Virus record (IMG/VR): IMGVR_UViG_3300047552_002383
Origin: an uncultured virus (IMG/VR IMGVR_UViG_3300047552_002383)
Lineage: Duplodnaviria > Heunggongvirae > Uroviricota > Caudoviricetes
Direction: 5' to 3' (one strand)
Length of the DNA stretch: 64,000 bases
This document shows, piece after piece, positions 7,553 to 61,395 of this stretch; the first letter of the stretch is position 1, and every line of letters begins with the position of its first letter. The notes beneath the pieces are model-generated. The model saw only the letters and a program-made list of their open reading frames with translations. It was not told the DNA's origin and did no database searches. The translations under genes and the position numbers were made by a program.

Positions 7553-10474
7553 ATGAATATAGACTATATTCGCCCGCTTTCAGTAGTTACAGATAAAATA
7601 CTAATAAACAAAAATGCATTCGTTCATTTAATACCAGATTTTACGACAACTGGTGGTGAAATTTTGAATTATCTAAATTTAGATTATTCAAGATGTCATG
7701 CTATGATTATAAAAACTAGTATTTTTAAACTTGGAAATTTTACATTACAACCAAGAACATATTATACTCAAATAAAAAATAAAAAAGATCTTCCTGTTAA
7801 AATTTTACAATTTCTTCCAAATAAATTACCAGATAGAAAGTATTTTATAATTGATCACACCGTAACTTCCCAAGGTGTCGAGCACTTATATGGTACAATA
7901 GGTAAAAAACAAGCTATTATTTATTTAATTCAACAAATTAAATCAGAATTTAAAAAATTAAAAACAGAATACCCAAATTATGAAAATATAATCATTTTCA
8001 ATATTATTAATGAAGATGGATTATATGATATAATTCGTCAATTCCCTATTATTAGTAAAGTCGAAACATTAAACTTTTTTGATCGTATTGGATTAGTAGC
8101 AGTATGTGTTGGAACAGATGCGACTACATTTATACCAATATTACATTTTGATCAAAAAGGTGATGCTGAATTTTTGAAAAATAATCTTGTAAAAGTATCT
8201 AAAGCATTATCATTAGCCGTTCCACCAGAAATCAATATCAAAGACTCTACTGAAGCGCCTCCTGTGGATGGAGCAGCCCCCATTTCCCCCACGGCAGCGG
8301 AGACTGATCCTCAAAATCCTCCTCCTGCATTAAATGATATTACAACTAATATTATTAATGATACTATTTCAGATAATATTAAAAAAGATCTTGAATCTGA
8401 AATGTTTAAAATCACAGCAGAAGTCGATTCTGCTAGATTATCTAAAGTATTAAAAAATTATAAAATTCAAGATGAAATTGTTGCCAATAATATAAAATTA
8501 GTTGTAAATGAGTATTTAGAGAAAAATAAAAATAAAGAAATTGAAAAGAAAAATTTAGAAGATGTAGTATTAAAATCAATACATTTTTCTTTATTTGGAA
8601 CGGATGAAGTTAAAGATATCTATAAAGCAAATCCTGAATTATTAATTTCTAAGTTAGAAGAATCTGAAACATTCTCAAAACATATAACTTATCCAGAACC
8701 AATTCATCAGATTTCTTTAGTATCTCCTAAGGACGTTGTTCAAATAAATCGTATAACTGGACCTGTACGACATAAATTTGAATTTAATGAAAATATTCAT
8801 AGTAATATTAAAACATTATTCAAATCATTAGAACAAAAGACTAATTTTCCCGTTAAAGTTCAAAAATTTAGCTATGATTATTATGATGATAATCTAAATA
8901 GATTTATTGAATATACAATTACTTTGAAAAATATATCGGGTGGTGCACCTGAGCCATATGACGTTAAAATTAGAATTCCTGCATTAGTTAATGATAAGTA
9001 TTTTAAATTAAATGGTCAGGAATACATCCTTTCTTCTCAACAATTCCTTCATCCTTTAACTAAAGATAAGAATTCTGAGGCTCGATTTCTATCTCATTAT
9101 GGTATGATTCGTCTTCGTACTGTAAATATGAGATTTAATATTTCTCAAATTGATGAAGTTATTAATTATATTAGATTAAAATATCCTATTTTAATCGATA
9201 GTATTGATACTGATATCAATGGTAAAGTTTCTAAGATTCAATTTATTGATCCTAAACAAACTATTATCGATTTAAATAGTTCTACACCATTTAAAAATAC
9301 AGAAAAAGAGATATATCTTGAAGAATCTCAATATTTTATAAAGGATTTAAAAACTCAGAAATCTCAAAAAGTAAATAAATCAGAATATATTTTCGATTAT
9401 TTACTAAATCTAATTAAAGATATCGATCCAAATGAGGAATTAAAAAAATCAAAGAAATCAATTCCTTATCTGGAAGTATTCGTCATGTCTCGGAAAATGG
9501 CGTTTATAATCTATCTTTGGCAACAGATAGGACTAATAAATGCTTTAACTAAGTTCAATATTAAATATGAAATCGCAGCTGCCCCATCATTAGGGGTCCC
9601 GGATGTTAATTTATTGTTGAATAATGGTAATTATTTATATATTTATGGCGATACTAAAAAAGAAGAATTGATCGTTAATGGATTATTAACTTTACCAAAA
9701 GATATTCATTTTACAGACGAGCAATTAAATGATAAAACTGCTTTAGATAATTATATTAATGAAAAATATGGTACTCGTACTATTGAAACTCTAAATTTAG
9801 CAACAGCTAATTTTATTGATCCGGTTACTAATTCATTATTGCAGTATCAGGATTTACCTGATAATTTAATTGATATCGTTTGTGGACCATTAACTGATAA
9901 ATTATTAAATGATAGTGTCGATGCTTTAAATGATTTAAGAACCTTAAGAGTACGTCAGTCGGAACAAATGACGCATATACTCTATAAGGAACTTAGTATG
10001 GCACATAATAAGTATACCCGAGATCTACAATATGGTATTGAAAATGCTACTATGTATCTTGATCCTAACTATGTCAGTGATAATCTCATTGGCAAGCATA
10101 TGCATGCGGGTAACGATGGAGGCAGTGCATTAACATACGTTAATATGCATAATCCTGTTGACGAGATAACACAAAGTAGCAAGATCATTAAGACGGGCGT
10201 GGGGGGTGTTCCAAGTAAACGATCTTTTAATAAATTCCATCGAGGAATTCACCCAACTTATATTGGTAATATCGGTGCACATGAGTCAACAGAATACTCA
10301 AATGTTGGCTTAATAAATTTCCATACATTAGGTAGTGTTATCAGTAATAGGTATGGATTTTATGGTAATGTTTATATAGATCCAGAATCAGATCATATGA
10401 ATAGTTTAGGTATTGGAGAAGCACTAATACCTTTCGTCGACCAATTCGATTCGGATAGGCTTTTTTTGGCCCGT
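7553..10474 (+). CDS. rpoB: Phage RNA polymerase beta subunit, exon 1
   Basis: YFKLNGQEYILSSQ, HRGIHPTYIGNI...ESTEYSNVGLI and ALIPFVDQFDSDRLFLAR match RpoB conserved blocks (VRDVHPTHYGR.CP.ETPEG.NIGLI; SLIPFLEHDDANRALMG). Long N-terminal extension. Confidence 0.85.
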
Positions 10475-11037
10475 TAATTTTTAGCGGCACTATAGAGTGA
10501 TCTATAGTTGAAAATCTTTTTAATTCGGTGAAACTCCTAATAGGACAATACCGAGCTTATTAAATTCACTTTTTAAATAAACAAATAAAAAGAATCTACA
10601 GGTGTAGACTCTAAAGGTAACAGGAATTTAAATTTCTTTGATCCCCATTACTTGTACAAGATATTCAGCCAACGATTGCATGATCTCAACATCTCCTTCT
10701 GATGTTCTGATAAAATGAGAACTGATAGGTTCTTCAAATCCATCGTTGTCCGCGAAAATACCCCATCCTACTCCAAGGATAGGTAACTTTTTGGTAATAA
10801 CATCTTCAATACTGGTAATCATATTAAATTACTCCTGTGTTGATGATATTATATAATATCTATATGAAAAAGTGAAATAATAAGTGTAACGACTATCCCA
10901 AAAGGGAGTACACTCTAGTGAGTGGAAATAAAAGATAACTAATCATTATTAGTTAATAATATAGTCTAAACTATATGGCAACATATAGCAGGATTTAATT
11001 CCGGATAAAAAGTAACGATTTTTATCGAATATTTTTG
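10475..11037 (+). mobile_element. Group I intron (IA2-like) in the RNA polymerase beta gene
   Basis: P1 with U.G at the 5' splice site (CCGU|UAA..UUAGCGG); P element AATTCGGTGAAAC, Q AATACCGAG; P7 GACTA 10891-95 / TAGTC 10962-66; P7.1, P7.2, P8 and P9 hairpins; terminal G 11037. Splicing restores the frame: FLAR|THQSQKMP, equivalent to RpoB ALMGA-NMQRQAVP. Confidence 0.9.
10628..10822 (-). CDS. 64-aa intron-embedded antisense ORF of unknown function
   Basis: RBS AGGAG 9 nt before ATG, promoter motif at 10857-10864, hairpin 10591-10612 downstream; no LAGLIDADG, GIY-YIG or HNH motif. Confidence 0.6.
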   Translation of the reverse strand: MITSIEDVITKKLPILGVGWGIFADNDGFEEPISSHFIRTSEGDVEIMQSLAEYLVQVMGIKEI

Positions 11038-12822
11038 ACGCATCAAAGTCAGAAAATGCCTATTTTAAACGCTGAGGTTCCAATAGTCGCTAGTGGTACT
11101 GAATATATTGTTCCTCAATTAGCATCTGAAAAATTTACAAAAATTGCAGAGAGACCAGGTCAAGTAATTGATGAAGATCCAAATCATCATTTAACTATTC
11201 AATATGATAATGGTAAAACTGATAGGGTAGATATTCTTCCTAGATATGCTACTACTAAAAGAAATTCTGCAATACAAATATCATTAAACTCACTCCATAA
11301 AGGAGATACTTTCCAAAAAGGACAAATGATAGCTTGGTCCAATAGTTTTAACGGCGATGCATTAACCATAGGTAAAAATGTTCCCGTTGCAATTATGAGT
11401 TATCATCAAGGAAAATCTTTTGAAGATCAGTATGCAATTTCTGAAGATATGTCAGAATCATTTGTAACTGAATCTGTATCAAAAGTGTCTATTATTGTTC
11501 CACCAGATACTAAATTATTATTTATAAATAATAATATTGGAATTAATACGTCTAACAAAGATGTTTTAATAGAATTCCAATATTTAGATACATTAGAATC
11601 TTATATTGATCAATTTGATGAAATTGTTAATGATGAATATTTCGATGAAGATTTAGAAGCTATTATTCAAAAATCAAAAAATTCAATAAGAAGATTCTCC
11701 CCTGGTGGTGAAATTAGTGATATAAGAATTTATATTTCTAATAGAAATAAAGTGGATCCTGAAATTCTAAAATTATGGGATTTACAAAGACAAAAAATTA
11801 GTAAATTATCAAAAGATCTTCTAACTTATCGTACTGGAAAAGAAGATAGTAAATTATTAAATAATATTGATTTTAGCGTTTTAAAAACTGGATTTACAAA
11901 GTTTGAAGGTGCTAAAATTGATTTTTATATTAAACGTCCAAAAGAATTGCTTCTTGGTGATAAAATAAGCGGTAGACAAGGAAATAAAGGAGTTGTTGGA
12001 CATATTATTCCAAAAGATACTCCAGCTATAGCTGATTATACTGGAAGAATTGATTTATTTATGTCCCCATGTGGAGTTTTAGGACGTAAAAATACATCAA
12101 TTATCAAAGAACTTTATATATCTAAAATCTTTTATTTTCTACCTAAAATTATAATTAAAAAATTTCAAGATAATGAAAAAATTGAGGATATTAAAAATTT
12201 AATAATTCAAATATATACATTATTAGATCCTACTAAAGATAAACGTAATGTTTTATCAATTACTGAAAAATTAAATCAAATTACTCCTGCTAATTTAAAG
12301 GCAGGGATTGAAAATAATAAAATATTCTTTAATATTATAATCCCACCATTCAATCCTATTGATATTAATAATATTCAGCAAGCTGCTAAAATATTAAGAA
12401 TACCATTAAATGAAACAGTAGAGATAACTGAATTTGGTGGAATTAAAACTAAAATTAAAGTTCCTGTAGGCTTCCTTTATTTCGGTGCAATGGAACAACT
12501 TTCAAGTGACTATGAAAGTACACGTAGTACTGCTGGATATATTTCTTCTACTGGACAACCTACACAAGGGAAGCGTAAATCTGGTGGCCAGTCTATAGGT
12601 GAACTAGATATTAATGCATTATTATCGTATGATGCAAAAGATACATTAAAAGAACTTATGACTGCTAGAAGTGATAATCTTAGAACTAAACGGCAAATGT
12701 TAAGAGATTTAAGAGAATCTGGAAAGACATTTATGGAATCTTGGCAAGATGAAGAAAAAGGTCAAAGTTCCCTTCTTCTTTCTATTTATTTAACTGGGTG
12801 TGGATTATTTACTAACTTATGA
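11038..12822 (+). CDS. rpoB: Phage RNA polymerase beta subunit, exon 2 (spliced product 1568 aa)
   Basis: GDKISGRQGNKGVV and RSTAGYISSTGQPTQGKRKSGGQSIGELD match RpoB GDKMAGRHGNKGV and RSTG.YS..TQQP..GK...GGQRFGEME. Confidence 0.9.
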   Translation, partial: THQSQKMPILNAEVPIVASGTEYIVPQLASEKFTKIAERPGQVIDEDPNHHLTIQYDNGKTDRVDILPRYATTKRNSAIQISLNSLHKGDTFQKGQMIAWSNSFNGDALTIGKNVPVAIMSYHQGKSFEDQYAISEDMSESFVTESVSKVSIIVPPDTKLLFINNNIGINTSNKDVLIEFQYLDTLESYIDQFDEIVNDEYFDEDLEAIIQKSKNSIRRFSPGGEISDIRIYISNRNKVDPEILKLWDLQRQKISKLSKDLLTYRTGKEDSKLLNNIDFSVLKTGFTKFEGAKIDFYIKRPKELLLGDKISGRQGNKGVVGHIIPKDTPAIADYTGRIDLFMSPCGVLGRKNTSIIKELYISKIFYFLPKIIIKKFQDNEKIEDIKNLIIQIYTLLDPTKDKRNVLSITEKLNQITPANLKAGIENNKIFFNIIIPPFNPIDINNIQQAAKILRIPLNETVEITEFGGIKTKIKVPVGFLYFGAMEQLSSDYESTRSTAGYISSTGQPTQGKRKSGGQSIGELDINALLSYDAKDTLKELMTARSDNLRTKRQMLRDLRESGKTFMESWQDEEKGQSSLLLSIYLTGCGLFTNL

Positions 12823-13118: not shown

Positions 13119-13130
13119 TATAGATATAAT
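13119..13130 (+). promoter_or_regulatory. Candidate phage promoter TATAGATAT(T/A)AT (representative + strand copy)
   Basis: Same core at 1198, 25290, 29200, 29420, 36518, 48250, 50124, 56084, 59723, 60205, 60371, 60540, 60779, 61031, 61197 and 61387, each intergenic and upstream of a + strand unit. Confidence 0.75.
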
Positions 13131-29170: not shown

Positions 29171-29217
29171 GTATCTATATAGAATTTTTAAAAATTTTAT
29201 ATAGATATTATATAATA

Positions 29218-33603: not shown

Positions 33604-34563
33604 ATGAATTTAATATCACATGCTATACCATTTTTACAAAAAATGGCAAAAAAATACAAGGAAGATAATGATAATCTTGAAGGATTAGTTGATATAATTT
33701 CTACATTTTTAATAGATGCTCAAAAATTTACAATTCCATCTCCAAATTCTTTAAATGTAACAATAACTAATTCATCTATTCCATTTATTAAAATGCCATA
33801 TCCTATTATGGCCATTGAATATTTGTTATCTGTTGAAAAAACAGGAACTACTAATATGTTAGATCCTAATTTTCCAGTTAGAAATTGTTCAAAAAGGATT
33901 GTATTGGCATTTGATTCTTCTAAAATAGATACTTCTGTATTTTTACAAGGTGAAAAAATAAAAAAAGGAATTGTAAGTATTTCTATTTTTTATGTCGATG
34001 AAACTAAAGAATGGGAAATAGCACCTGGTGCCATTTGGTATGATCCAGAAACGGAATTTACTGAATTATTAATCAGTGATAGTAAATATCATTTGAGTGG
34101 AACGGCAAAGTTATTTAAATATGAATTTTTATATAATACATATACACAAATAATTCAACAATTTGGAAAAGCTACAGATAAACATCCAATTATATATAAT
34201 ATGGTGTTTAACGATAATGTAGAAGAATTATGTTCTTTAATTAAAATTGTTGCATTATTAAATGCGAAAAATATAAATACTATAGATATAAATCCAAGTC
34301 CAAAATTAAATAAAAAAAGAATAAAATCTGGTAGTTTACCATTTTATTCATATAAAACATTAGATATATTTTTATCGAAAGAAACTCGAAAAATAAGAGC
34401 AAAGAATATTAAAAATCATCTCTCTAATTTTATAGCCACTAAAAGATTGCATTCTGTAAGAGGACATTTCAAAATTAGAAAAACTGGAATATATTGGTGG
34501 TCTTCTTATCAACGTGGCTCAATGCAAAAGGGTATTGTAGAAAAAGATTATAATATGAAATGA
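33604..34563 (+). CDS. Hypothetical phage protein
   Basis: 319 aa; C-terminal RLHSVRGHFK...YWW motif. Confidence 0.6.
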   Translation: MNLISHAIPFLQKMAKKYKEDNDNLEGLVDIISTFLIDAQKFTIPSPNSLNVTITNSSIPFIKMPYPIMAIEYLLSVEKTGTTNMLDPNFPVRNCSKRIVLAFDSSKIDTSVFLQGEKIKKGIVSISIFYVDETKEWEIAPGAIWYDPETEFTELLISDSKYHLSGTAKLFKYEFLYNTYTQIIQQFGKATDKHPIIYNMVFNDNVEELCSLIKIVALLNAKNINTIDINPSPKLNKKRIKSGSLPFYSYKTLDIFLSKETRKIRAKNIKNHLSNFIATKRLHSVRGHFKIRKTGIYWWSSYQRGSMQKGIVEKDYNMK

Positions 34564-35594
34564 TAGAACAAACTTATGATATCATAAAATATCTTAAAAT
34601 TGCAGCTTCTGTTGCTGAAATGGGTTTATGGGTATATGATGTTGAATCTAAAACTGCACATGGCGATGAAGTTATGTGTAATATGTATGGTATTCATCCA
34701 CCCAATCAAGAAATAGATGCTGATGAATGGTTCAATATAGTTCATATTGACGATGTTAATGAAGTCAAAACTAGATTTAATAAATCTATTAGTACTCATG
34801 AACAGATAACTTATAATTATCGAATAGTAAATAAAGAAACTAAAGAGGTTAGGCATATACAATGTCTAACCTTTGTTATATTTGATCAAAAAACAAATAT
34901 AGCAAAAAAAGTAATTGGAATTAATTTAGACTGTACAGTTAAGGTTAAATTAGAAGAAAATATACAATTTTATATACATAAATTAGAAAAAATTGTTAGT
35001 TCTATAATTGATACTATTTCTATTATGGGAGAATTAAGAGATCCGTATACAGCTGGTCATGAAATGCGAGTTGCAAATTTAGCTGTAGAAATCTCTAAAT
35101 CTTTAAACCTTGGCGAATCTCAAATAACTTGTATTAATATCGCAGCTAGAGTTCACGATATAGGGAAATTCTGGATACCAACAGAAATATTAACAAAACC
35201 AGGGACTTTATTACCTGTACAATTTGAACTTATAAAATTACATCCAAAAGTTGGATATAATATTTTGAAAAATGTTGAATTTCCATGGCCTATAGATTTA
35301 ATCGTTTTACAACATCATGAACGATTAGATGGTTCTGGTTATCCATTAGGATTGACCTCAAAAGATATTAAATTAGAATCTAAAATTATTGCTGTAGCAG
35401 ATGTTATAGAATCTGTAATGTCTCATAGACCATATAGACCGGCTTTAGGTTTAGATGTTGCTATTAATATTATTAATAGTGGCTCTGGAAAATTATTTGA
35501 TCCGGAAATAAGTAATATTTGTATAGACTTATTTACTACAAAAAATTATACATTACCAGAACCAACACACGATCTCCAAGAATATGAAATTTGA
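34560..35594 (+). CDS. PAS + HD-GYP cyclic dinucleotide phosphodiesterase
   Basis: N-terminal PAS (GLWVYD...VHIDD); RDPYTAGH, HDIGK, HHERLDGSGYP, IAVAD, RPYR. Confidence 0.92.
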   Translation: MIEQTYDIIKYLKIAASVAEMGLWVYDVESKTAHGDEVMCNMYGIHPPNQEIDADEWFNIVHIDDVNEVKTRFNKSISTHEQITYNYRIVNKETKEVRHIQCLTFVIFDQKTNIAKKVIGINLDCTVKVKLEENIQFYIHKLEKIVSSIIDTISIMGELRDPYTAGHEMRVANLAVEISKSLNLGESQITCINIAARVHDIGKFWIPTEILTKPGTLLPVQFELIKLHPKVGYNILKNVEFPWPIDLIVLQHHERLDGSGYPLGLTSKDIKLESKIIAVADVIESVMSHRPYRPALGLDVAINIINSGSGKLFDPEISNICIDLFTTKNYTLPEPTHDLQEYEI

Positions 35595-38943: not shown

Positions 38944-40458
38944 ATGGCTAAAAAATCATCTAATGTTGAAGGTATTGACGTTAGAAAAATAAAACAGGAT
39001 AAACAAAAATCATATGAAAAGTTAAAATATTTAACTAAATGGTTGTTTAATCCAGAAAAATATAATATCGAATTACTTACAGAAAATTTAAATGAATTTA
39101 ATAGTAGTTTAAGATATCGATTATATGGAAATATATTAACAATACCAAAAATAATATGGTATGTAAATAAATATTTAAATCATATCGATACTTTTCATAT
39201 TACTAATGCCGAAGATTTATTAAGAACATTTTCGGATATTATTAAAATATATGGTTTAAAAAATTCTTCATCTTTACATTTTTCTCGATTTCAAACTTTT
39301 AAAAGAGACTCATTTTCAGACATTATTCAAAAATATTGTGAAGAAACTAATTCTTCTTTAAATAAACAAGATGTAATTAATTTATATCGATTATTTGAAA
39401 TAGGAATTATTAAAAGTAATGAAATTGAAGAAATGGAAGATATTATCGAAGGTAAAGAAAAAATATTAAAAAGTAATTCTATTAATACACCTATAGAAGA
39501 AATTAAATTAAATCAAACAAAATCTGCAGAGATAATTAATTTTAGTAATAATTTATTAAATTTTAAAACTAAAAGAAATCCTTGCATACAATGTCCTTTA
39601 TATTATAGACAAACATCTGTTATTGATACTAATATTTCATCATTTACAGATACCCCAGTTGATATAGCTATAGTAGCTAACGAAACCGCTCTCGAACAAG
39701 ATATACAAACCCAATCCCCACTATCCGGTGAGGATGGAATATATTTTAGATCTTTGTTCTATCCATTAGTAAAAAAATATAATTTAAAATATATTATTAC
39801 TAATGCATCTTTATGTTTTCCAGCAAATAAAAAAGAATCTGAGCCAACTGCTACTAAAAAAGCTATGGCTAATTGTAGAGGTATGATCGATGAAATTCAT
39901 TCATCTTTTAAACCTAAATTAATAGTATTATTCGGATCTTCTATTATTCGTAATTATGGAATTAAAGATAAGATTACGGATATTAACGGCGAAATAATAG
40001 ACAAAAAATATTTTTGTATGACTTCGCCACTAGAAGCTTTACGTTCTAAAACATACATGGATAGATTTTTAAAGGCAATGTTCTTATTAGAACATAATAT
40101 GTCAAAATCTTTCCAAATTAAAAATTTAGAAAAAACAGAACAAACTAATGATAATAATACAGATACCGATACTGTTCAAAATTTAAGTATTACTAGTTCA
40201 CGTATTGAAAAAGGTGATACTTTATTTAATATAGAAACACTTAATGATCAATTAGTTTATGTATTTATAGATTCCAATAATAAAAAGAAATATATAATTG
40301 AACAAATTCAATATCCAATATTTATAAAAAATGGAAAATATCAGGAATGTAATTATATAGAAGAAGATATAAATTATAAAGTTATATTATCTCATAAACA
40401 AAAACAAACTTTATCACATAGATTAAATCAAAATATAAAATATACAATAGAATGCTGA
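38944..40458 (+). CDS. Protein with a central uracil-DNA-glycosylase family-4-like (Fe-S) domain
   Basis: CIQCPL...IAIVANETA...PLSGEDG...ITNASLCFP...C...KPKLIVLFG. Confidence 0.6.
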   Translation: MAKKSSNVEGIDVRKIKQDKQKSYEKLKYLTKWLFNPEKYNIELLTENLNEFNSSLRYRLYGNILTIPKIIWYVNKYLNHIDTFHITNAEDLLRTFSDIIKIYGLKNSSSLHFSRFQTFKRDSFSDIIQKYCEETNSSLNKQDVINLYRLFEIGIIKSNEIEEMEDIIEGKEKILKSNSINTPIEEIKLNQTKSAEIINFSNNLLNFKTKRNPCIQCPLYYRQTSVIDTNISSFTDTPVDIAIVANETALEQDIQTQSPLSGEDGIYFRSLFYPLVKKYNLKYIITNASLCFPANKKESEPTATKKAMANCRGMIDEIHSSFKPKLIVLFGSSIIRNYGIKDKITDINGEIIDKKYFCMTSPLEALRSKTYMDRFLKAMFLLEHNMSKSFQIKNLEKTEQTNDNNTDTDTVQNLSITSSRIEKGDTLFNIETLNDQLVYVFIDSNNKKKYIIEQIQYPIFIKNGKYQECNYIEEDINYKVILSHKQKQTLSHRLNQNIKYTIEC

Positions 40459-44495: not shown

Positions 44496-46691
44496 ATGCA
44501 CAATAAATTTGTTACTAAAAGAGATGGTGCTATCGAAGATTTTGATATTAATAAAACCCGATTGGTTATAAAATGGGCCACTGAAAACACATCAGTTAAT
44601 CCTTTAGAATTAGAAGCTAAAGTCGATGTTGTATTTTATGATGGAATTAAAACCCAGGATATTCAAGAAAATCTAATTACCCATTCGTTATCACTAGTTA
44701 GTATTGAAAATCAGGAATGGTTAAATGTTGCCGCTAATCTTAGAATTATGACTCGATATAAAATATATCGAGATATTTCATTTAAAAATTTTGTAAAAAA
44801 TAAAATAAATATACAAGAATATAATTTTAGTTTAAATTCATATTCAGATGATGAATTAGATATTGTTAGCACATGGGTTAATAAAGAATTAGATAAGATT
44901 TATGATTATGCTGGAGCCAGTGTATTACTTACAAAATATCTATATCAAGATGAACCTTTACAATATGCTTTTCTAGCTACAGCTCTAACTATCGCTGCTA
45001 ATGAAGAAAAAACAAAAAGAATAGAATTTGCTCAAAAAATTTATAATTCACTTAGTAATAAAAAAATATCATTAGCTTCTCCATTATTAAATGGAGTTAG
45101 AAAACATAAATATAATTTAGCATCTTGTTTTATAGGAAAGATGGGGGATTCGATAGATGAAATATATGGAACGTTACACCGAGCTGCAAAAATCTCTAAA
45201 AACGGTGGCGGGCTCGGGATTTATATTGGTAACATTAGGGCTTATAGTAGTAGTATACGCGGCGTTAAAGGTGCTTCTGGCGGGATAGTACCTTGGATTA
45301 AACTTCTTAATGATACGTGTGTTGCCGTCAATCAGCTAGGAAAGAGAGCTGGTGCTTGTACTGTTGCATTACCAATTTGGCATTATGATATTGAGGATTT
45401 CTTAAATCTTCAAACCGAACATGGTGATCAAAGAAAGAAATGTTTTGATATATTTCCTCAAATAGTAATGTGTGATCTATTTTTGGAAAAATGTGAGAAT
45501 GATTTAGAATGGTATTGTTTTGATCCATATGAAGTGAAAACCGTTCTAGATATTGATTTAAACGAATATAAATCAAAGCAAAATTGGCTTGATAATTATA
45601 ATAAATGTGTCGGGGCTTATAAAAATAAAAAAATTACTCTTGTTAAAGAATATAAAGCTAAATATATAATTAAAGAATTAATAAAAACTATTGTCGAAAC
45701 AGGTTTACCATATATCTCATATGTTGATACATTAAATAAATATAATCCTAATAAACATGATGGGGATATTATATGCGTCAATTTATGTACTGAAAGCGTT
45801 TCTAATGTAGACGATAATCATTGGCATACTTGTAGTTTAAGTAGTTTAAATTTAGCTTATATTGAAGAGAATGAAATTGAAGAACAATGTAAATTAATTA
45901 CTAGATTGCTGGATAATATATTAGATATTTGTGAATATCCAATTAATGAATCTTTAAATCATGTAATCAAATATAGAACAATTGGAATAGGAATTTTAGG
46001 TTTAGCTGATTATTTTGCTAAAAATGGGCAAACTTATGAATCAGCTTATGAATCTAAATATCTTTCCAATTTATTCGAAAATATTGCATATTATTGCACA
46101 TCTGAATCTATTGAATTATCAAAAGAAAGAGGAGCGTATCCTGCTTTCCATAAATCAGAATGGTCAAATGGTAATAGAATAAATAATTTTGCAAATCATA
46201 GTAAAAATCAATCTAAATGGCTAGTATTGCAATCTAAAATCAATATGTATGGGATTAGAAATAGCCAACTATTATCTCCTGCCCCTAACACCACATCCGG
46301 TTTAGTTCAAGGTGCGGTTGCTGGAATATTACCTCCGTTCAATCTATTGCATTACGATGATAGTTCAAATGGTTCTATTGCTATAATGCCACCATTTTTA
46401 TCAAAATATCCATTACTTTATAAATCATATCGTAACTATGATATGATGAAAATGATTGATTATATTGCAGAAATGCAAAAATGGGTAGATACTTCTATTT
46501 CATTTGAAAGTTTAATGGATTTAACTAAATTAGATGAAAATGGAAAGCCCATTATAACGGCAAAGTATATTTATGATTATATTTTAAAATGTAAAAATTC
46601 TGAAATAAAAGCAAATTATTATTGGAGATTTATTTCCAAAAATAGCGATTCAATACATGATGAAGATGTGTGTGTAGGATGTAGTGGGTAA
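44496..46691 (+). CDS. nrdA: Class Ia ribonucleotide reductase alpha subunit
   Basis: ATP cone (VTKRDG), LASCF, GGGLG, NLCTE, CSLSSLNL, APNTTS, C-terminal CxxC. Confidence 0.95.
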   Translation: MHNKFVTKRDGAIEDFDINKTRLVIKWATENTSVNPLELEAKVDVVFYDGIKTQDIQENLITHSLSLVSIENQEWLNVAANLRIMTRYKIYRDISFKNFVKNKINIQEYNFSLNSYSDDELDIVSTWVNKELDKIYDYAGASVLLTKYLYQDEPLQYAFLATALTIAANEEKTKRIEFAQKIYNSLSNKKISLASPLLNGVRKHKYNLASCFIGKMGDSIDEIYGTLHRAAKISKNGGGLGIYIGNIRAYSSSIRGVKGASGGIVPWIKLLNDTCVAVNQLGKRAGACTVALPIWHYDIEDFLNLQTEHGDQRKKCFDIFPQIVMCDLFLEKCENDLEWYCFDPYEVKTVLDIDLNEYKSKQNWLDNYNKCVGAYKNKKITLVKEYKAKYIIKELIKTIVETGLPYISYVDTLNKYNPNKHDGDIICVNLCTESVSNVDDNHWHTCSLSSLNLAYIEENEIEEQCKLITRLLDNILDICEYPINESLNHVIKYRTIGIGILGLADYFAKNGQTYESAYESKYLSNLFENIAYYCTSESIELSKERGAYPAFHKSEWSNGNRINNFANHSKNQSKWLVLQSKINMYGIRNSQLLSPAPNTTSGLVQGAVAGILPPFNLLHYDDSSNGSIAIMPPFLSKYPLLYKSYRNYDMMKMIDYIAEMQKWVDTSISFESLMDLTKLDENGKPIITAKYIYDYILKCKNSEIKANYYWRFISKNSDSIHDEDVCVGCSG

Positions 46692-47768: not shown

Positions 47769-48203
47769 TCACAATGTAGTTACCAAATCGGTCAAATGAG
47801 GAATTCTGGTAAAACCTCCTATTGACATATGTTGGAAACGAATTTTCATCGCATTTTTTAATGCCTGTTTTTCTCCATAAATATCAATTGAAAAATAATA
47901 ATTAGAATTATTTACAGAAGCCACCCATTTATTATCTCTTTTTGTTATTCCTACCACACCAGATTTATTATTCTTAGTATATAATTTTCCAGTATAATTG
48001 GGATCTGTAAAATAATGTTCTTTTAAAAGTAAATTTCTATATTCTAAAGCAGCATTTAATGTTGTTTTAAAATTCGAAAATTTACTTATTGTAAATGTTT
48101 TTGTTTTTATATTCGGTACCCTTACTAAAAAAGCTCGGGTAATTTGCAATTCATCTCTAATTACTGTTATGTATCTTAGTTTGAATTTCATTTTTTCCCT
48201 CAT
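47769..48203 (-). CDS. AP2-domain DNA-binding protein
   Basis: Two AP2-like repeats (KTFTISKF...ALEYRN; NNKSGVVGI...KWVA...FSIDIYGEKQALKNAMKIR); own promoter 48224 and terminator 47736-47764. Confidence 0.65.
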   Translation of the reverse strand: MREKMKFKLRYITVIRDELQITRAFLVRVPNIKTKTFTISKFSNFKTTLNAALEYRNLLLKEHYFTDPNYTGKLYTKNNKSGVVGITKRDNKWVASVNNSNYYFSIDIYGEKQALKNAMKIRFQHMSIGGFTRIPHLTDLVTTL

Positions 48204-48294
48204 ATTCTAATTGAATAATATTATATCTATATAAGTATTTAAAAAAATATATAGATATAATATGTTGTGTTAATTTTTGAAAGAGGGTATTTAT

Positions 48295-49314
48295 ATGTTA
48301 GAGTTTCCTAAATTATTTAATCCTACTGGTGACGATAGTGTTCAAGCCAGACAAATTATTAACGGAAATTGTACTAATATTATTAATTTAAATAATGTTA
48401 AATATAAACAATTCTATAAACTTTATAAATTACAATTAGAGCAATTTTGGATTCCTGAAAAAATTGACTTAACTAATGATAGAGTTAATGATTTAACTGA
48501 TGATGAATATCTAGCTTACAAAGGTATTTTATCATTTTTAACATTTTTAGATTCAATTCAAGTTAATAATTTACTTAGTGTCGCAGAATGGTTTACTGCT
48601 CCAGAAATTAAAATTTGCTTAGGAGCCCAACAATTTTTTGAAATTATTCATTCTGCTGCCTATCAGTATATTTTTGAAACTACTATTTCTTCAATAGAAG
48701 AACGGCAAAATATATATGATTATTGGAGAGAAGATCCTATTCTTTTAGAAAGAAATTCATATATTGCAAAAATATATCAAGATTTTATAGATACTAAAGA
48801 AGAAGATGCTTTCTATAAAATGATGATAGCTGATTATTTATTGGAATCTCTATATTTTTATCAAGGTTTCATTTACTTTTATAATCTTGCATCCAGGAAA
48901 AAAATGACTGGTGTAAGTTCAGTTATTAGATATATTAATAAAGATGAATTATTACATGTTGTAATATTTGCAAATCTTTTAACTGAATTCAAAGGTAGAA
49001 TTAATAAAAAAGATATATATTCTATGTTTGAAACGGCAGTCGAACAAGATATTAAATGGAACCAACATATTTTAAATAATATTCTAGGTATTTCTAATGA
49101 ATCTATTGAACAATATACTAAATTCTTATGTAATAAGCGTCTAGTCCAAATTGGATTAGAACCTATATATAATAATGTATCGAATCCTTATAGACATTTA
49201 GAAAAAATATCAGGGACCGATGAAGATAATGATGCAGTTAAATCGAACTTTTTCGAAACTACTGTAACTCAATATAATATGGCATCTGCCGTTTCTGGTT
49301 GGGATGAAATATGA
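48295..49314 (+). CDS. nrdB: Ribonucleotide reductase beta subunit
   Basis: FWIPE, LDSIQ, EIIHSAAY, LESLYFYQGF, DELLH, NFFE; RBS before ATG 48295. Confidence 0.95.
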   Translation: MLEFPKLFNPTGDDSVQARQIINGNCTNIINLNNVKYKQFYKLYKLQLEQFWIPEKIDLTNDRVNDLTDDEYLAYKGILSFLTFLDSIQVNNLLSVAEWFTAPEIKICLGAQQFFEIIHSAAYQYIFETTISSIEERQNIYDYWREDPILLERNSYIAKIYQDFIDTKEEDAFYKMMIADYLLESLYFYQGFIYFYNLASRKKMTGVSSVIRYINKDELLHVVIFANLLTEFKGRINKKDIYSMFETAVEQDIKWNQHILNNILGISNESIEQYTKFLCNKRLVQIGLEPIYNNVSNPYRHLEKISGTDEDNDAVKSNFFETTVTQYNMASAVSGWDEI

Positions 49315-60150: not shown

Positions 60151-60221
60151 TATGGAAAAGGCCTTCTAATAAAATAGAAGGCCTTTTTATTTTTAAAAAT
60201 TATATATAGATATTATATAAC

Positions 60222-60348
60222 AGTCCAGTACCATAAGTTTACTGGGTTAGACCATGTGTCGACAGGTTCGACTATTCCTGTTTAAATCCAATAGTAAGTC
60301 TAGAGGGTAATAATGTTTATGGCATTACTACTCTCTAGGCGGATCTAA
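60222..60348 (+). ncRNA. ncRNA array unit 1
   Basis: Promoter 60205; 5' hairpin, closing stem TTAGA../..TCTAA, kissing hairpins, long GTCTAGAG/CTCTAGGC stem; T-rich tail. Confidence 0.8.
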
Positions 60349-60385
60349 TTTTTATTTTTTAAAAATTTTATATAGATATAATAAG

Positions 60386-60514
60386 GTAGCCTAGAACCGT
60401 ACAATCTTCTAGGTTAGATCAAATAGGTCGATAGGTTTTTGACTATTCCTATTAAAAAAATAGTAAGTCTAGAGATGATAATATTACGGTATTATTGTCT
60501 CTAGGCGGATCTAA
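60386..60514 (+). ncRNA. ncRNA array unit 2 (homolog of unit 1)
   Basis: Promoter 60371; same blocks as unit 1 with compensatory changes. Confidence 0.8.
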
Positions 60515-60559
60515 TTTTTTTATTTTTGTAAAATTTTTATATAGATATTATTATAATAT

Positions 60560-60768
60560 AAGATATACAACTGTTTATTTTATATAGTAATGGATAGTTA
60601 GGGACCACTTCCTATGGCGATTAGCCAGAATAACTATCCTTCAAGGAATAATGTGGCGACGGTGGCGATACACCCTGGTCCGATATTGCTCTACCCAGAC
60701 AAAGATCAGAGCAAAAGTAGATTTTTATATATCCAAGCAATTGGGTATATGAAAATCTACTTGTTTTT
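60560..60768 (+). ncRNA. ncRNA array unit 3
   Basis: Promoter 60540; GGATAGTTA/TAACTATCC stem, crossing GGACCA/TGGTCC and TTCCT/AGGAA, long terminal hairpin 60715-60762. Confidence 0.7.
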
Positions 60769-60794
60769 ATTTTATTTATATAGATATTATATAG

Positions 60795-61015
60795 TATCCA
60801 AAATGGTGGGTGGCCACTCACTATTATAATTGGATCTGGAGGTAAGTTCGTCAACTTATAATTCCTTCAGTATCGAAGTTGACTATGTTCGGTATTATGT
60901 CTATAACTACTGGACGAAAAAATATAGGCTTTGGATTCTCTTGTACCTCGCATGAGAGTTCGAGATAATAGAGTACACATCCAGGAGTTTTCTCCTGGGT
61001 GTGGGGCCTATTTTA
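60795..61015 (+). ncRNA. ncRNA array unit 4
   Basis: Promoter 60779; H-type pseudoknot CTGGAGG/CCTTCAG with GTCAACTT/AAGTTGAC; 3' multi-stem domain; T-rich tail. Confidence 0.7.
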
Positions 61016-61046
61016 TTTTTAATTTATTTATATAGATATAATATAA

Positions 61047-61175
61047 TGTCGTACGTACGATTCGTTGTCTGGGACGGTCATTGTGTAAAAACGAAGTGTT
61101 ACGTTTTTAAGCCCAGAGATGCGAAGGAGAATGACTAGGAGGGAGATTAACACACTCCCTCCGAAACCTTTTTAT
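61047..61175 (+). ncRNA. ncRNA array unit 5
   Basis: Promoter 61031; TCTGGG/CCCAGA crossed by GTCATT/AATGAC; terminal GGAGGGAG/CTCCCTCC. Confidence 0.7.
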
Positions 61176-61211
61176 TTTGTGTTTTCAAATATTTGATATA
61201 GATATTATATA

Positions 61212-61368
61212 GTGTTCGCCTCGAAAGTCTTCGGACCGTTAGAGAATACAATGGTAGCAATATCATTGGGCGAGGTAAATTGGCTCCCCTGGACAAGGAG
61301 TGTTCGCGCCTGCGGAATTGGTAGTGATTTCGATAGTTGAGCACCTACGGGTGTTCGGCGCCTTTTTA
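61212..61368 (+). ncRNA. ncRNA array unit 6
   Basis: Promoter 61197; hairpins capped by C(UUCG)G, GCAA and C(UACG)G tetraloops; T run. Confidence 0.7.
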
Positions 61369-61395
61369 CTTGTTTATTTTTTTTAATATAGATAT

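Follow-up and report, generated by a model that had tools for sequence, protein, structure and literature searches.

The T-even phages have IA2 group I introns (td, nrdB, and sunY), the peripheral loops of which house I-TevI, I-TevII, and I-TevIII. These introns contain the elements P7.1 and P7.2, which together are a marker of subgroup IA2, and an open reading frame (ORF) in a P6-type loop; I-TevI has internal signals of its own. Phage morons and the T4-type promoter/stem-loop cassettes are small genes that have their own promoter and terminator, are absent in relatives, and are atypical in composition. Small acidic early phage proteins often act by binding host or rival-phage proteins. The capsid-gene intron of mycobacteriophage LittleE, the splicing of which is documented by RT-PCR, is described as having an endonuclease gene on the bottom strand (PMC3706429), and nuclear rDNA group I introns at site L2066 are described as having sense and antisense His-Cys endonuclease genes (PMC9548176). 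The RNA polymerase subunit intron of phage PhiPA3 contains a homing endonuclease that is used in phage-phage competition (Birkholz et al. 2024, as related in PMC12908238). In collaborative homing (i.e., homing in trans), ORF-less introns are moved by free-standing endonucleases, according to two further accounts (PMC3984707; PMC2790892).

Here we describe a group I intron with a different type of cargo in a 64,000-nt stretch of DNA from an uncultured virus (IMG/VR record IMGVR_UViG_3300047552_002383; hereafter, the window). The window has a G+C content of 26.5% and looks like part of the genome of a large freshwater phage. It encodes topoisomerase II, a clamp loader, a helicase, ribonucleotide reductase, QueC/D/E-like proteins, an endolysin, and eight tRNA genes, and its plus strand carries nearly all of the genes. 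Parts of the window occur in eight runs of DNA, drawn from four metagenome studies of freshwater or aquatic sites, and in no run on record as RNA. Contigs were compared for four of these eight runs, and parts of the window were without contig cover in two runs (i.e., X4 and X8).

The gene for the RNA polymerase beta subunit (7553-12822, plus strand) is split by the intron. Two adjacent plus-strand ORFs (7553-10477 and 11035-12822) represent the N- and C-terminal parts of beta; they match PHROG 3148 ("RNA polymerase beta subunit") with E values of 3e-28 and 3e-26, respectively, and the second part also matches Pfam RNA_pol_Rpb2_6 (E = 5.9e-17). Among named relatives, gp089 of Bacillus phage AR9 (non-virion RNA polymerase beta C-terminal protein) comes closest to the second part, with 27% identity. 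When exon 1 (7553-10474; 974 codons, ending in GCC CGT, with U10474 at the 5' splice site) is joined to exon 2 (11038-12822; first codon ACG), the spliced frame encodes 1,568 amino acids with a single terminal stop, and its alignment with AR9 gp089 is ungapped across residues 974/975. The insertion site lies in a highly conserved segment of beta. Exon 2 had no relative in the viral contigs or metagenome contigs searched, and the tail of exon 1 had no match in a tblastn search against phages. Left unrecognized, the intron would cause the beta gene to be annotated as two fragments. The PhiPA3 case resembles the present one in that a jumbo phage has a group I intron in a gene for its multisubunit RNA polymerase; as described, the PhiPA3 cargo is a functional endonuclease, whereas the intron of the window has no such gene.

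An intron-less allele, colinear with the predicted spliced exons, occurs in two metagenome studies. Contigs in run X1 (depth, 59) and in run X3 of the other study (depth, 3.8) join position 10456 to position 11053 via 33 nt, which encode, in frame, RLFLARTHQSQ, identical to the product of 10457-10474 plus 11038-11052 of the window. Because the intron-less bridge encodes the same residues, the last base of exon 1 is U10474 and the first of exon 2 is A11038. A different pair of splice sites (10464/11027), which came from an incorrect alignment to the beta sequences of AR9 and bacteria, is ruled out by this allele. In X1, an intron-plus contig (record 5; 10423-11082 with 0 differences; depth, 58.8) was present at approximately the same depth as the intron-minus contig (59), and both forms are also present in X3. 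The intron is polymorphic for presence and absence in nature. According to a hand comparison, the bridge and the window differ at 13 of the 33 bases; all 13 differences are synonymous, and they touch 10 of the 11 codons. On the same X3 contig, differences in the flanking sequences are limited to 4 of 85 and 2 of 112 bases. This local silent recoding at the insertion site would be the expected trace of co-conversion during homing, or it may reflect selection, whether for P1 pairing or at the target of an endonuclease.

The intron (10475-11037, plus strand; 563 nt) starts with an in-frame TAA and ends with the omega-G at 11037. Both ends follow the rules for group I introns: a U10474-G10484 wobble occupies the splice site in P1 (10471-10487; CCGU/UA with UAGCGG, the slash marking the splice site), and exon 2 is preceded by G11037. 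P1 was read from the sequence and corresponds to the first stem in the alignment to the Rfam model. The stems P3, P4 to P6, P7 to P9, and P7.1/P7.2 were all located. On the 5' side, the fold and the located stems place P2 at 10490-10507 (with a GUGA loop), the 5' strand of P3 at 10514-10520, and P4/P5/P4' at 10525-10554. The 3' core (10890-11037) contains P7 (10890-10895 with 10962-10967), P7.1 (10896-10907), P7.2 (10911-10924), P3' (10930-10936), P8 (10937-10954), P9 (10971-10988), P9.1 (10991-11002), and P9.2 (11004-11026). The minimum-free-energy fold of 10455-11040 has an energy of -140.2 kcal/mol (z = -5.58; 0 of 100 shuffles as good). The unconstrained fold recovers P2, P4/P5, P6/P6a, P7 with P7.1, P7.2, and P8 nested, P9, P9.1, and P9.2.

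Rfam model RF00028 matched the intron in two halves, a 5' half starting at 10465 (29.5 bits; E = 1.6e-5) and a 3' half extending to 10988 (20.3 bits). Neither half reached the gathering score of 50, and nothing reached gathering across the whole window; the intron scores fall below that value because the match is split by the long insert (i.e., the 292-nt loop described below). A search with 10877-11032 of the 3' core matched 89 records, none of which reached 80% query cover, with identities of 70 to 77% to sequences from Staphylococcus, T-even, and Lak phages (70 to 71% for the T-even phages). Neither blastn nor Rfam (E values of ≤0.05) revealed another copy of the intron in the window. The intron proposed in an earlier, sequence-only reading of this DNA is thus real, on the decisive evidence of the intron-less allele and on that of the fold and the RF00028 halves, and its exact boundaries are 10475 and 11037. 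On the basis of its predicted stems, it appears to be a self-splicing group I intron of an IA2-like type. As in the T-even introns, P7.1 and P7.2 are both present and the ORF lies in a P6-type loop. Unlike the T-even ORFs, the ORF of the window is on the opposite strand, has 64 amino acids, belongs to no nuclease family, and has its own terminator.

P6 (7 bp; CTTATTA at 10556-10562 with TAATAAG at 10878-10884) is stacked with P6a (10 bp; TTCACTTTTT at 10565-10574 with AAAAAGTGAA at 10867-10876). The 5' strands thus span 10556-10574 and the 3' strands span 10867-10884, forming a 17-bp stem that closes a 292-nt loop (10575-10866), and both helices are in the minimum-free-energy fold. The sequence-only reading had described a P6a stem looping out about 290 nt; this description held, with the positions given for the two strands (10566 and 10868) being one base off. 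In X1 and X8, contigs that carry related introns depart from the window exactly at 10556 and rejoin it at 10884, with short hairpins in between. The shorter side of the X1 joint at P6 has just 22 letters (i.e., it is a weak joint), and this contig probably represents a different intron copy. The cargo insert in the intron of the window measures 328 nt.

We searched viral contigs for related introns with a 15-nt P7/P7.1 word, which yielded at least 114 loci. An iterated profile of the 5' segment from P3 to P6 placed 66 of the at least 114 listed loci, leaving 48 unplaced, some of which have short flanks. Among the matches listed, P6 of the 66 placed introns contains 15 to 55 nt in 39 cases, 160 nt in one case, and 409 to 638 nt in 26 cases. 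A sense-strand reading frame is present in each of the 26 long inserts among these matches: 22 have a stop-free sense frame of 136 to 201 codons, and the other four (L012, L035, L005, and L043) have ATG ORFs of 144 to 170 amino acids. A scan of 24 family ORFs among the matches listed identified HNH_3 in five, Endonuclease_7 in one, a sub-threshold HNH in one, and no family in 17; these 17 belong to groups related to the HNH/Endonuclease_7 ORFs or to one unnamed family. The view that this loop often houses an endonuclease is thus in agreement with 26 of the 66 placed relatives listed, each of which has a sense-ORF insert of 409 to 638 nt, and P6 is the cargo slot of the family.

The insert of the window showed no likeness to the family inserts among the matches listed, at either the DNA or the protein level, and it is shorter than all 26 endonuclease-type inserts among them (328 nt versus 409 to 638 nt). 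A comparison of cargo across intron homologs, as suggested in the sequence-only reading, found a short P6, in one case a 160-nt insert, or sense ORFs, most of them resembling HNH or EndoVII endonucleases, among the matches listed and the cargo of the window in none of them. The intron of the window is the sole one with a backward non-endonuclease passenger (1 of 67, i.e., the 66 introns placed among the matches listed plus the window). No beta homologue occurs beside the family introns at the at least 114 loci listed (0 tblastn matches), so that no orthologous intron was found at the beta site. The intron resembles those of collaborative homing in that it has no endonuclease of its own, yet displays a presence/absence polymorphism and a recoded target site. 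It differs from them in that no partner endonuclease was identified beside the beta gene of the window, where the minus-strand region 6625-7509 matches no family. As a separate observation, 6061-6630 matches the PDDEXK_15 and RusA-like families; we made no link between this match and the intron. An AP2-domain gene at 47769-48203 is a further candidate endonuclease of the phage.

The P6a loop holds a minus-strand unit, and every element of it that the sequence-only reading had named (i.e., a promoter motif at 10857-10864, AGGAG, a 64-aa acidic ORF, and a hairpin) is present. Minus-strand positions 10864-10857 read TATAGATA, extending to TATAGATATTATATA (10864-10850), which is an instance of the recurrent motif TATAGATAT[AT]AT and starts 42 nt before the ATG. 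A sigma-70-like site (TTCACT-17-TATAAT; 10848-10876, minus strand; 10 of 12 matches) overlaps this motif, and its -35 hexamer lies within the 3' arm of P6a. A Shine-Dalgarno sequence, AGGAG (10832-10836), is located 9 nt before the ATG at 10822, with which the ORF (10628-10822, minus strand; hereafter, ORF64) begins. An intrinsic-terminator-like hairpin (10612-10591) followed by a T run (together, 10581-10612) starts 15 nt after the stop codon. ORF64 is thus flanked by a promoter and a terminator of its own, as judged by sequence only.

The motif recurs throughout the window. TATAGATA has 32 copies on the plus strand and 15 copies on the minus strand, and the 12-mer TATAGATAT[AT]AT has 22 copies on both strands versus 0.54 expected under a first-order Markov model; 20 of these 22 copies are outside ORFs of ≥80 amino acids, which cover 81% of the window. 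It lies 27 to 60 nt before many starts and also precedes tRNA genes. The motifs at 13119, 25290, 59723, 7553, 54759, and 50124 are 40 to 45 nt before the start of an ORF, as compared with 42 nt in the cassette. No copy of the motif lies upstream of the beta gene in the same orientation. The sole similarity between the cargo and the rest of the window is this promoter motif (up to 19 identical bases, at 29199-29217). Early promoters of jumbo-phage polymerases are described as conserved AT-rich motifs of approximately 10 nt centered near -10 (PMC7598289); the motif of the cassette is consistent with this description and represents a candidate promoter.

The other signals also depart from chance. 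A Shine-Dalgarno-like motif, even as a 4-mer, precedes just 15 of the 73 genes in the window, and on account of this low number the AGGAG site is unlikely to be accidental and is atypical for the phage. On the plus strand, the terminator hairpin reads into AAAGG and has no T run, so that sense transcription of beta should pass. The chance of an ATG ORF of ≥64 amino acids is 1.5% when the loop is shuffled and 0.7% for random 292-mers matched to the window in composition. The four signals of the cassette are present and non-random, and the expression signals look intact by sequence, as had been claimed, the promoter being the recurrent motif of the phage.

The product of ORF64 has a pI of 4.25, a net charge of -7, one His, and no Cys. 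The sequence-only reading had called the ORF short and devoid of nuclease motifs, and the searches bear this out. ORF64 matched no family in Pfam or PHROGs at E values of ≤1, and it found itself alone both in a HMMER scan of 1.84 billion representative proteins and in a word-indexed search of 5.8 billion clusters; no relatives were found among about 15 billion proteins. Neither HNH, GIY-YIG, LAGLIDADG, His-Cys, PD-(D/E)XK, nor EDxHD matched ORF64. A blastx comparison with the intron ORFs of the family yielded no match at E values of ≤0.01, and no alignment to a fragment of a homing endonuclease, the result named beforehand as decisive against a non-endonuclease gene, emerged from this comparison, Pfam, or PHROGs. 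A degenerate pattern of 12 ORF64 residues had 0 matches in viral contigs and metagenome contigs. The tblastn searches returned six phage records, all with E values of ≥3, and, within the window, only ORF64 itself below an E value of 0.4. By every test run, ORF64 appears to have no endonuclease relationship. It also differs from the family ORFs in being on the opposite strand and in its length (64 amino acids versus 136 to 201 codons in the sense orientation).

Structural models of ORF64 are of low confidence (AlphaFold2 pLDDT, 49.9, with a helix at residues 42 to 59; Protein Atlas pLDDT, 0.41). The nearest Protein Atlas feature clusters consist of fragments from the N termini of periplasmic-binding proteins (score, 0.91, with 143 features shared); they are below the same-family level, and this assignment was not adopted. 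A likeness of "PILGVGWG" to the nucleophile elbow of glutamine amidotransferases was supported by no search. The codon log-likelihood of ORF64 (0.279 per codon) is at the 12th percentile of the genes in the window and above 82.5% of 40 shadow ORFs. Its GC3 is 0.31, compared with a gene mean of 0.134, and is equaled in just 2 of the 73 genes (binomial P = 2e-4), which points to a recent foreign origin or to an RNA-structure constraint. The metagenome data contained two copies of ORF64, which are identical, so that no dN/dS could be computed.

Among the described systems, the closest to this arrangement are those with antisense cargo. LittleE also has a phage intron, spliced in its case and predicted to be so in the window, with a gene opposite to its host gene. 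The LittleE passenger is a homing-endonuclease homologue, whereas that of the window has no relatives, no nuclease features, and a defined promoter and terminator. The L2066 introns, as described, likewise have an antisense protein gene within a group I intron; they differ in being eukaryotic, in having endonuclease cargo, and in that their genes contain spliceosomal introns. The literature searched, which takes in a minority of the subscription journals, contained no account of an antisense cassette other than an endonuclease gene in group I introns of bacteria or phages, and the words "antisense" and "opposite" are both absent from a 2014 review (PMC3984707). In the sources consulted, LittleE thus already provides a phage intron with an endonuclease gene in antisense, and the non-endonuclease backward cargo appears to be new.

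We propose that the cassette is a moron-like passenger gene, acquired recently and now taking up the slot of the endonuclease, as an independent backward unit with predicted expression; we assign this reading a probability of roughly 55%. As in morons, the cassette is absent from relatives (i.e., from all 66 placed family introns and from the co-occurring intron-less strain), and its composition is unlike that of the host genome (GC3, 0.31 versus 0.134). Unlike morons, it sits inside a ribozyme loop of an essential gene and not between genes. The family to which the intron belongs is a widespread one with a variable P6 slot, holding either a short stem or a sense-strand homing-endonuclease gene, and the passenger gene would have been acquired recently in place of the latter. 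The backward unit combines the recurrent promoter of the phage with a ribosome-binding site, an ORF of 64 codons, and a terminator predicted to act in one direction and to spare the sense transcription of beta. Its orientation would keep the translation signals out of the intron RNA, so that ribosomes could not load on the folding ribozyme and expression would be uncoupled from that of beta. The unit may be transcribed and translated independently, probably early, and its small acidic product may bind some host or rival-phage protein. Any movement of the intron would now need an endonuclease supplied in trans.

Several points count against a passenger gene. ORF64 has no homologue, and there is thus no conservation showing selection on the protein. 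The predicted models are poor, 17.5% of the shadow ORFs match the codon score of ORF64, and its high GC3 could come from an RNA-structure constraint instead of foreign coding DNA. The structure of the minus-strand transcript and the apparently non-coding units under the same type of promoter, both described below, also weigh against it. One alternative is a young neutral by-product, in which illegitimate recombination at the promoter repeat replaced or deleted an endonuclease gene and left behind an unselected, functionless ORF. This scenario, which we regard as rather unlikely, would be in line with the lack of relatives in about 15 billion proteins and of a confidently predicted fold, with the identity of the two metagenome copies, with a resemblance to the rest of the window that is limited to the promoter motif (≤19 identical bases, 29199-29217), and with an insert shorter than all 26 endonuclease-bearing ones among the matches listed. 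However, it would have to leave four separate signals intact and correctly spaced within 292 nt, together with a terminator that works one way and spares beta transcription, and no trace of a decayed endonuclease was found in any frame by blastx, Pfam, or PHROGs. It is highly improbable that ORF64 itself serves the intron as a maturase or as a minimal endonuclease of a new kind, either homing or nicking. ORF64 does occupy the endonuclease slot, and the polymorphism of the intron and the dense, exclusively synonymous differences over the 33 nt at the site imply that something moved the intron or selected on its target site. However, such mobility is explicable by an endonuclease acting in trans, and a protein of 64 amino acids with one His, no Cys, and no match to a nuclease motif is less than half the size of the endonuclease-like ORFs of the family (136 to 201 codons).

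The remaining alternative dispenses with the protein: the unit would produce a non-coding antisense RNA of approximately 260 nt, the ORF would be incidental, and the RNA or convergent transcription would act on the beta pre-mRNA, including by tuning its splicing. The minus-strand transcript is predicted to be unusually structured (z = -3.42), with a fold superior to those of all 200 shuffles, and the ribosome-binding site is paired, and so sequestered, in its fold, which keeps a non-coding reading alive. Additionally, the promoter motif heads ORF-poor, structured, terminator-ended units at 60205-61390, and these units at 60.2 to 61.4 kb, driven by the same promoter type, look like non-coding RNA units. 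The absence of relatives and of a confident fold for ORF64 and a GC3 atypical of the phage genes point in the same direction, and an antisense RNA beside an intron-bearing phage gene has been described, namely CfrI in S-PM2 (PMC12197685). We nevertheless consider this explanation unlikely. The ideal spacing of AGGAG, the common distance between promoter and ATG, and an ORF occupying the transcript until 15 nt short of the terminator make up the layout of a protein gene, and each feature of the cassette is singly unlikely by chance. The structure of the minus strand mirrors that of the plus strand, on which selection may act instead. Finally, the RNA is predicted to pair with the dispensable P6 loop only, and not with the catalytic core (P3 to P9). 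An antisense RNA that tunes splicing and RNA polymerase timing, as put forward in the sequence-only reading, is thus possible, with no support from this analysis. The role that it gave to the intron as a neutral landing site for cargo is plausible. Overall, its observation was confirmed and its interpretation partly supported.

The co-occurrence of intron-plus and intron-minus strains in the same waters, together with the recoded tract, provides a natural test case for the persistence or movement of an intron without an endonuclease. In a broader version, phage group I introns would be general vehicles of accessory genes: a functional backward gene in the dispensable loop of an essential polymerase gene would spread among co-infecting strains by intron movement in trans, and its antisense transcription would set the level of early pre-mRNA splicing. 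We consider this extension a long shot. If the unit is expressed, the cargo slot of a phage ribozyme would be open to takeover by a gene unrelated to intron mobility, and accessory genes would be able to hide in the introns of essential genes and to travel with them.

Among the matches listed, the viral-contig loci that share a 15-nt P7/P7.1 word with the group I intron in the phage RNA polymerase beta gene (L002 to L115) make up a large phage intron family. The P6 slot of this family carries at least three types of endonuclease (i.e., HNH_3, HNH, and Endonuclease VII) as well as one family of ORFs of 136 to 201 codons without a Pfam match (e.g., L011, L031, L036, and L016). At three loci (L062, L067, and L006), the 3' core lies 700 to 1,300 nt downstream, which suggests that these introns carry cargo in another loop.

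We compared the sequence around the insertion site (10457 to 10474 joined to 11038 to 11052) with matching contigs from two metagenome DNA runs (X1 and X3), in which beta alleles with and without the intron were present at approximately equal depths. By hand comparison, 13 of the 33 bases flanking the insertion site are changed between the two alleles, every change being synonymous, and the sequence beyond this stretch differs by only about 3%. The recoded stretch resembles a tract of co-conversion or a target-site tract.

A 144-aa gene on the minus strand (47769 to 48203) lies between the genes for the large (44496 to 46691) and small (48277 to 49314) subunits of ribonucleotide reductase. It has its own promoter motif and an AP2 domain that scores just under the Pfam cutoff (31.2 bits versus 33.3), and it looks like a free-standing gene of the homing endonuclease type. 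The plus strand also encodes a PAS-HD domain protein (34560 to 35594; HD_5; E = 1.3e-33) and a protein of 504 aa that contains a domain of the uracil-DNA-glycosylase superfamily (38944 to 40458; E = 2e-6).

Six or seven units follow in succession on the plus strand at 60200 to 61390, each headed by the promoter motif TATAGATAT[AT]AT (60205, 60371, 60540, 60779, 61031, 61197, and 61387) and continuing with 120 to 200 nt of GC-richer sequence and then a hairpin and T run. By eye, the unit at 60371 looks like a paralogue of the one at 60205. Only one unit contains an ORF of at least 50 aa (71 aa, after the motif at 60540), and neither tRNAs nor Rfam families at E < 0.03 were detected in the units. 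The region is probably an array of phage small RNAs.

Across the whole window, a 4-mer Shine-Dalgarno-like motif precedes the start of only 15 of 73 genes; the host of this phage may therefore make little use of these sites.
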